From Escherichia coli (GTDB taxonomy: Bacteria; Pseudomonadota; Gammaproteobacteria; Enterobacterales; Enterobacteriaceae), in the NCBI RefSeq assembly GCF_003334385.1, contig NZ_QOWN01000012.1: a DNA stretch of 64,000 nt; one strand, given 5' to 3'. How positions within the stretch are numbered: position 1 is the first letter of the stretch; every line of letters starts with the position of its first letter. The translations under genes and the position numbers were made by a program. Shown piece by piece: positions 44,885-45,205 of this stretch. A model generated the notes under the pieces. It was not told where the DNA came from, did not search any database, and saw nothing but the letters and a program-made list of their open reading frames with translations.

Positions 44885-44956
44885 AACCCTCTCCTTAGCT
44901 TATACAGATATCATTGAGTGACCGGTGTTGAGAAATCCGGTGGTTTAGGGGGATAG

Positions 44957-44972
44957 AGCAACAATCGCACCA
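44957..44972 (-). promoter_or_regulatory. candidate sigma54 (-24/-12) promoter for ygfK-ssnA-ygfM-xdhD
   Basis: Minus strand TGGTGC-GATTG-TTGCT, 73 nt upstream of the ygfK ATG. Confidence 0.45.
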
Positions 44973-45205
44973 CTCTTGCCAGGTTTGGCGGGAAATATAA
45001 AAAAATGTGAGGCGGCTCGAAACTTAAGGGCTTTTTGTGAATGAACTCACAGGTGCTAAATGAGAATTAAAATCACTCCTGAAAATTATTATTGCCAGCC
45101 CATTTATCAATTTTTCTCTTTTCTCAAAATCAGTGATTCCTTATCATTATGATAATGAGTGCCGGAAGGATTAAATATTTGAACGCAATCGTTTAACTAC
45201 GTTTT

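Follow-up and report, generated by a model that had tools for sequence, protein, structure and literature searches.

The window analyzed here, a stretch of 64,000 nucleotides, holds the purine/urate catabolism cluster of E. coli K-12 in reversed orientation (Table 1). In the anaerobic degradation of urate by gut bacteria, XdhD-YgfM, YgfK and SsnA catalyze the first reductive steps, reducing urate to 2,8-dioxopurine and opening the purine ring. Urate is a strong inducer of ygfK, and its consumption is suppressed by glucose. To counter hyperuricaemia, strains that overexpress the urate pathway are being engineered, and a preprint has suggested that strain differences in urate consumption reflect gene regulation.

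Between the stop codon of mocA and the start of ygfK lie 321 nt (44885-45205), in agreement with the gap of about 320 bp given in a preliminary description of this DNA, and this gap serves the ygfK-ssnA-ygfM-xdhD operon as its control region. Over the 901 bases spanning the gap region, the DNA showed 100% identity with MG1655, and 5,161 of 5,426 complete E. coli genomes contained at least 80% of this stretch. The MG1655-labelled sequence NZ_CP032667 (locus L001) contains, between yqeB and arcC, about 180 bp that are absent at window positions of about 48331-48370, so that gene coordinates past 48.3 kb are offset between the window and that sequence. An Rfam scan of the gap gave no match at E <= 1, and the open reading frames overlapping the gap were all of 34 aa or fewer, none of them plausible as a small gene.

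For comparison, 80 loci around ygeY homologues were fetched from the Enterobacterales, Aeromonas, Vibrionaceae, Shewanella and some beta-proteobacteria, and the genes of the cluster were mapped in each. The gap upstream of ygfK was aligned over 29 genera (alignment A1). The cross-genus comparison of promoters covers loci that stop short of the ygfT/uacT gap.

Table 1. Genes, control elements, blocks conserved in alignment A1, and matches to the palindrome matrix (ranked by score) in the 64,000-nt window
Feature	Sequence	Coordinates	Strand	Position	Basis or remark
ygfK		41786-44884	-		Start codon 44882-44884; ORF list and RefSeq annotation
mocA		45206-45784	-		
ygeW		53312-54502	-		
ygeV		54978-56756	+		
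xdhA		58161-60419	-		
uacT		28129-29577	-		
ygfT		30013-31932	+		
Sigma-54 -24/-12 element	GTGGTGCGATTGTTGCT	44957-44973	-		GG 44971/44970, GC 44959/44958; sequence, matrix, ChIP-seq identity, conservation
Second CRP-like site	TTCGA-GCCGCC-TCACA	45006-45021	-	centre -67.5	Right arm strong, left weak
Perfect CRP consensus	TGTGAGTTCATTCACA	45036-45051	.	centre -97.5	Zero mismatches
Everted repeat	TGATTT-TAA-TTCTCA	45061-45075	-	centre near -122	Right arm plus flank = TAATTCTCAT
Half-site block (site B)	TTTTGAGAAA	45120-45129	-	near -178	About 20 bp promoter-side of site A
Full palindrome (site A)	TTATCATAATGATAA	45141-45155	.	centre -202	Matrix and A1
PurR box	AGTTAAACGATTGCGT	45183-45198	-	centre -244.5	Pattern match, 3 mismatches to the 16-bp ACGNAAACGTTTGCNT palindrome
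Block 1	TTATCA-N3-TGATA				A1
Block 2	TTTTGAGAA				A1; about 20 bp downstream of block 1
Block 3	(G)TGATTTTAATTCTCATT				A1; contains the 10-mer of the preliminary description
Block 4	GTGAG-N6-TTCACAAA				A1; CRP site
Block 5	TT-GA-N6-TCACA				A1; CRP-like
Block 6	-24/-12 element				A1
Matrix rank 1	TTATCATAATGATAA	45141-45155		ygfK gap	24.8 bits, best in all 64 kb
Matrix rank 2		54809-54823		ygeW/ygeV gap	20.3 bits
Matrix rank 2		29771-29785		ygfT/uacT gap	20.3 bits
Matrix rank 4		46531-46545		inside yqeC	18.9 bits
Matrix rank 5		52965-52979		inside ygeX	15.3 bits
Matrix rank 6		60648-60662		upstream of xdhA	13.0 bits
Matrix rank 12		60627-60641		upstream of xdhA	8.8 bits

The sigma-54 promoter of ygfK

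The preliminary description had read the minus strand from 44972 to 44957 as TGGTGCGATTGTTGCT (TGGTGC-GATTG-TTGCT) and had proposed it as a -24/-12 promoter of ygfK. This reading held. The GG and GC doublets are separated by 10 nt, which fits the TGGCAC-N5-TTGCW layout, and the proposed distance of 73 nt was found between the last T of TTGCT (44957) and the A of the ygfK ATG (44884). The predicted start site at about 44946 would give a leader of 62 nt. The loose pattern TGG-N8-TTGCW was not enriched in the window (7 found, 6.6 expected), and therefore we used a matrix trained on 38 ChIP-defined E. coli sites outside this cluster, whose own scores ranged from 7.7 to 21.0 bits. Such a scan had been proposed as a check on the element, which scored 11.7 bits and ranked 7th of about 128,000 window positions. 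Its -24 half, TGGTGC, deviates from TGGCAC in having TG in place of CA, and its score lies below the median of known sites.

The ygfK sigma-54 promoter is already on record, in a ChIP-seq map and as an EcoCyc prediction. Table 1 of Bonocora, Smith, Lapierre and Wade (2015) lists site OS31 (ygfK) with the identical 17-mer, a fold-above-threshold (FAT) value of 26 compared to 21 for both glnA and pspA, and a start predicted to lie 62 nt ahead of the gene; the entry bears the flag of an EcoCyc prediction (PMC4591121). The OS31 motif centre, 3,014,001 on the plus strand of U00096.2, maps exactly to window position 44965. With the same 17-mer, strand and position, OS31 and the element described here are one object, and the core promoter does not differ. 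The same authors stressed that sigma-54 binding alone is no proof of promoter function; their account of OS31 does not demonstrate transcription from the site and describes no enhancer, CRP or PurR site (PMC4591121). In arrays, ygfK was up 2.1-fold with sigma-54 overexpression and down 2.4-fold without rpoN (PMC2831329). In that work, Zhao et al. (2010) placed the -24/-12 element of ygfK nine bases upstream of the ChIP motif. We rejected their alternative, CTGGCAAGAGTGGTGCG (44982-44966; 10.75-11.1 bits depending on the background), which is not conserved beyond Escherichia and Citrobacter; the ChIP motif is the downstream one.

Among the 55 loci with ygfK, 53, ranging from Escherichia to Aeromonas, had the orthologous element as their best sigma-54 match within 500 nt upstream of the gene. 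It reads YTGG[TC]NYG-NTTG-TTGCT, lies 57-92 nt before the ATG (123 nt in one locus), and is conserved whether mocA or another gene stands upstream. Within A1, T217, G218, G219 and T228-C231 were invariant. The two exceptions were the beta-proteobacterial loci L060 and L064; no ygeV turned up within either fetched locus, and both the promoter and the palindrome motif discussed below were absent. The sigma-54 promoters of ygeW and xdhA (OS30 and OS29) were likewise conserved, and no conserved sigma-54 promoter of this kind was found before ygeV in the orthologous loci. The earlier suggestion that ygfK-ssnA-ygfM-xdhD has its own regulated sigma-54 promoter is supported by the ChIP-seq, the rpoN arrays, the YgeV iModulon and this conservation, and the element is almost certainly a functional sigma-54 promoter.

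Conserved elements between mocA and the promoter

In A1, the gap resolved into six conserved blocks between unconserved spacers. Comparison of four E. coli promoter regions of the cluster gave a common core, CTCATATTGATA, which the orthologous promoters resolved into a 15-bp inverted repeat, TTMTCA-N3-TGAKAA. Of the 134 promoter segments, 109 contained this repeat with at least 11 of the 12 specified positions matched. The motif TTMTCANNNTGAKAA with up to one mismatch had 4 matches in the window compared to 0.41 expected. We then scanned the window with a palindrome matrix built solely from the non-Escherichia orthologous promoters of ygfK, ygeW and xdhA, and site A in the ygfK gap was the highest-scoring match. 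Matches of at least 12 bits occurred at about 4 per kb in promoter segments versus 0.16 per kb across all loci, an enrichment that is partly circular, as the matrix was trained on the same orthologous promoters. Positions T35, T37-A39 and T43-A47 of site A were invariant in A1. The distance from its centre to the GG falls into two classes, 176-178 nt and 156-157 nt, which are about 21 bp, or two helical turns, apart. Site B has T61, T63, G64, A65, A67 and A68 invariant, and its offset from site A is fixed across loci.

The domains of YgeV (PAS, Sigma54_activat and HTH_8) are the set of an enhancer-binding activator. Its recognition helix, LGIG[IV]ATLYRKIKKY, was invariant over orthologues of 48-100% identity, which fits the invariance of the palindrome motif, and the motif co-varied with the presence of YgeV, with L060 and L064 as the two negative loci in all. 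The YgeV iModulon, a co-expressed set, includes ygfK, ssnA, ygfM and xdhD together with xdhABC, ygeWXY, hyuA, ygfT and uacT, and expression of ygfT drops in a ygeV mutant (PMC10602906). The same matrix marks the ygeW, xdhA, ygfT and yqeB sigma-54 promoters, and site A is thus presumably the main YgeV enhancer site; that the palindrome family as a whole is the YgeV site appears likely. Literature searches found no YgeV ChIP, footprint or other DNA-binding data and no paper containing the enhancer sequences. The enhancer anatomy, comprising the palindrome at -202, the half-site, the everted repeat and the phased CRP sites, is plausible and appears to be undescribed.

The preliminary description had also pointed to a 10-mer that it took for the left half of a motif shared with positions 29765 and 54805. 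The plus strand at 45060-45069 does read ATGAGAATTA, that is, TAATTCTCAT on the minus strand (45069-45060), 88 nt from the TGG. The sharing was found in part: the full 10-mer recurs at 54806-54815, whereas position 29765 reads GTAATTTTCTCATATTGATAT, of which TTCTCAT alone matches. The full 10-mer has just one further copy in the window, at 46236-46245 inside yqeC. The 10-mer is oriented with ygfK as had been read, although orientation has little meaning for a palindromic motif. The TTCTCA half-site is present and conserved, but the full shared palindrome in the same gap had been overlooked, as had the CRP and PurR sites. The half motif is not the main enhancer.

The 10-mer forms the right arm and flank of an everted repeat that is the only window match to TGAKWW-N3-TTMTCA. 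As a complete inverted-repeat 15-mer it scored below 3 bits, the TTCTCA half-site and its flank alone matching. Within block 3, positions T123, T124, C125, C127 and T130 were at least 90% conserved in A1, and A128, T114, G115 and A116 were invariant. The Aeromonas version, TGATAA-cca-CTCTCA, keeps the arms and changes the spacer. Where present, TTCTCA starts 93-97 nt from the GG, and the spacings among this block, both CRP sites and the -24 element are fixed within about 2 bp. From this conservation we conclude that the half motif is probably functional DNA. The third copy of TAATTCTCAT, at 46236-46245, lies 43 nt upstream of the sigma-54 promoter internal to yqeC. This copy, which falls in coding sequence, is kept only by Escherichia and some Citrobacter, so it is probably not a general site.

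The site at 45036-45051 is the only TGTGA-N6-TCACA in the window without a mismatch; it is conserved in A1, and its centre lies 72-73 nt from the GG. The second, CRP-like site has T168, G171, A172, T179, C180 and C182 invariant in A1 and is centered 42-43 nt from the GG in most loci. A genomic-SELEX target list for CRP includes ygfK, ygeV<>ygeW and ygfT<>ygfU (PMC3105977). CRP very probably binds the ygfK gap. No match to the IHF consensus WATCAANNNNTTR with up to one mismatch was found on either strand of 44950-45210, so the bend may come from CRP instead, and this would account for the glucose repression.

A CRP site has been recognized between ygeV and ygeW, and TGTGGGGTTGATCACA, with 1 mismatch, lies at 54652-54667 between the ygeW enhancer and its -24/-12 element, centered at about -77. 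Upstream of xdhA, by our own reading of the aligned sequences, a T-rich-N6-TCACA lies about 43 nt upstream of the GG, the same offset as that of the ygfK CRP-like site. CRP-type sites in the looping region thus look like a feature shared by the promoters of the regulon, as judged from their sequences.

The PurR box lies 42-45 nt upstream of site A and is conserved in several genera. It is a known feature that lay outside the earlier observation: the exact 16-mer and its position were reported for the PurR ChIP-chip region 'ygfK-ssnA' in Table 1 of Cho et al. (2011), so the operator given there and ours are the same (PMC3159470).

A proposed mechanism for ygfK activation and its alternatives

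The overall explanation that we favor, with a probability of about 0.8, joins a sigma-54 closed complex, a YgeV enhancer, a CRP bend and a PurR input. Sigma-54 RNA polymerase sits on GTGGTGCGATTGTTGCT (44973-44957) as a closed complex, as the published ChIP-seq shows, and YgeV, encoded in the same cluster, would open it. YgeV dimers would bind TTMTCA-N3-TGAKAA repeats at the -202 palindrome and at the half-site near -178, with the everted repeat near -120, which holds TAATTCTCAT, probably serving as a third, promoter-proximal contact that aids assembly of the active oligomer. At the fixed spacing of the -97.5 and -67.5 sites, cAMP-CRP most likely bends the DNA and so brings YgeV to the polymerase; this bend would tie ygfK expression to carbon status, in keeping with the repression of the pathway by glucose. 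PurR at -244.5 would add an input of purine sufficiency. The specific arrangement, in which YgeV recognizes TTMTCA-N3-TGAKAA in a three-part enhancer (-202, -178 and the everted repeat at -120) and two phased CRP sites replace IHF, is offered tentatively, somewhat short of even odds. What is new here is the candidate enhancer anatomy, as read from conservation, the promoter and the PurR box being already known.

With NtrC at glnAp2 and NorR at norVW, likewise, a sigma-54 closed complex is switched on by an activator bound to inverted repeats over 100 bp upstream, and several of the sites lie about two helical turns apart. The ygfK region differs from them in its TTMTCA-N3-TGAKAA motif, in the unusual distance of its main site (-202), in its everted proximal element and in the CRP sites within the loop. 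NorR requires three sites, a precedent for a third, weaker contact. The DioR regulon of the Clostridiales is like that of YgeV in that a sigma-54 activator is predicted to act over orthologues of ygeW-ygfK-ssnA-ygeY, yqeB, dpaL and pbuX; it differs in belonging to another phylum and in having its own distinct enhancer motif (PMC6615313).

The main rival explanation concerns the block with TAATTCTCAT (45058-45078). Its occupant might be some protein that is not YgeV, for example a nucleoid protein or another regulator, or the block might be mere bendable spacer; its likeness to a half-site would then be incidental. An everted arrangement could not be bound by one dimer in the manner of site A, so that another protein may bind there; the block holds no full inverted repeat, is AT-rich, abuts the CRP site and keeps a rigid spacing to the promoter rather than to site A, and the E. 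coli promoters of ygeW and xdhA show no evident equivalent at that offset. Yet both arms fit the half-site consensus and are conserved between E. coli and Aeromonas while the spacer varies, TGATAATTCTCA-like blocks stand downstream of tandem sites in the Aeromonas and Serratia ygeW promoters, and the block region contains no IHF consensus. We regard this rival as a serious possibility, if a lesser one. Binding of the element by YgeV as a third, promoter-proximal contact is the most economical reading of these sequences, and we give it nearly an even chance.

The sign of the CRP effect admits a second alternative, in which CRP bound at its two sites (-97.5 and -67.5) would work as an anti-activator in the manner seen at dctA and glnAp2, holding the closed complex or mis-orienting the loop until YgeV is abundant. 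CRP-cAMP inhibits at the dctA, glnAp2, Pu and nif sigma-54 promoters, and all of the CRP effects on sigma-54 promoters in that account are inhibitory (PMC3900584). On the other side, glucose represses urate degradation, so that expression is favored at high cAMP; the CRP sites are perfectly conserved, lie at near-integral helical turns and occupy the usual place of IHF; and at ygeW, too, CRP sites lie between enhancer and promoter. The dctA, glnAp2 and Pu promoters are like ygfK in having CRP upstream of a sigma-54 promoter, linking carbon status to enhancer-dependent transcription. They differ in that CRP inhibits there, mostly without a strong dedicated site, whereas ygfK has a perfect, conserved site and its repression by glucose suggests a positive role. 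At prpBCDE, CRP is reported to act positively on a sigma-54 promoter. We consider an anti-activator role unlikely, though far from negligible, and on balance favor a positive action of CRP on ygfK. A sigma-54 promoter needing cAMP-CRP as an architectural co-activator would stand opposed to the inhibition known at dctA, glnAp2 and Pu. Glucose repression could instead work through the ygeV promoter.

An improbable third alternative is that sigma-54 binding at OS31 is unproductive and that ygfK is transcribed mainly by read-through from mocA or from a sigma-70 promoter. The caution of Bonocora et al. about binding and function applies here, and no terminator-like hairpin was found between mocA and ygfK. 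However, no sigma-70-like promoter was found on the ygfK strand, the element is kept where mocA is absent upstream, and ygfK responds to rpoN and varies in expression together with the cluster's other sigma-54 operons.

Nor does it seem at all probable that Fur, or some other regulator in place of YgeV, recognizes the palindrome TTATCATAATGATAA. The operon encodes Fe-S enzymes, and site A matches the Fur consensus at 13 of 19 positions, a level reached by only about 12 window positions; we judged this match coincidental and rejected it, since 21 of 56 distinct orthologous sites have TCTCA/TGAGA arms that break the GATAAT hexamers, and the motif goes together with the invariant HTH of YgeV and with sigma-54 promoters that belong to a single regulon.

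A chance likeness of TAATTCTCAT in AT-rich DNA can be set aside almost entirely: with one mismatch the 10-mer was no more common than expected (4 found, 3.8 expected), but the exact 10-mer occurred 3 times versus 0.07 expected, a count reached in 0 of 100 shuffles, and the conservation of its core over 29 genera at a fixed promoter distance contradicts this reading.

A defined YgeV operator with its CRP and PurR inputs would give a wiring diagram of how urate, carbon status and purine sufficiency act on the pathway in E. coli, and such an operator map would show which bases to alter in order to free the operon from glucose repression. The system is of a known kind, with a plausible and apparently undescribed operator for the regulator of a medically topical pathway.

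Related sites elsewhere in the cluster

PurR-box-like 16-mers were present in three promoter regions of the cluster, at 45183-45198 (-), 54700-54715 (-) and 29609-29624 (+). The ygeW box, AGCCAAACGTTTTCGT, and the uacT/ygfT box, AAGCAACCGTTTACGT, have 1 mismatch each and differ from the motif of Cho et al. for ygfT-ygfS. These matches suggest that PurR may act across the urate regulon. A further PurR-box-like 16-mer, ACGCAATCGTTCTCTT at 10171-10186 (-), lies upstream of an ORF of 364 aa (10277-11371) that we took as gcvT from its position and size; its agreement with the PurR-bound gcvTHP region of Cho et al. gave the pattern an informal positive control.

Upstream of uacT, CTGGCACTCCACGAGCA at 29646-29662 (-) has a good -24 and a poor -12, scored 7.5 bits and lies 68 nt before the ATG. 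Distant uacT-like genes of Mixta and Erwinia have CTGGCACG-N5-ACGCA at about 110 nt. Table 1 of Bonocora et al. does not have the uacT site among its intergenic sigma-54 ChIP sites but does list OS32 of the neighbouring ygfT, with a FAT of 3 (PMC4591121). The palindrome inside ygeX (dpaL), ATATCAAGATGATAT, has no obvious sigma-54 site nearby.

An intragenic sigma-54 promoter in yqeC that drives yqeB has been validated as site IS34 (PMC4591121). IS34 is TGAGCACGAACCTTGCA at 46288-46304 (+), and it was conserved in every locus with yqeC-yqeB. The yqeC palindrome, TTCTCAATGTGAGAA, starts exactly 243 nt downstream of the start of the 17-nt IS34 motif, and this offset was kept in all yqeC-yqeB loci that carry the palindrome. 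Codon changes in yqeC (S/Y and E/D) fall precisely at the degenerate positions of the motif, indicative of selection on the DNA. An enhancer that is both intragenic and downstream of its own promoter would be unusual.
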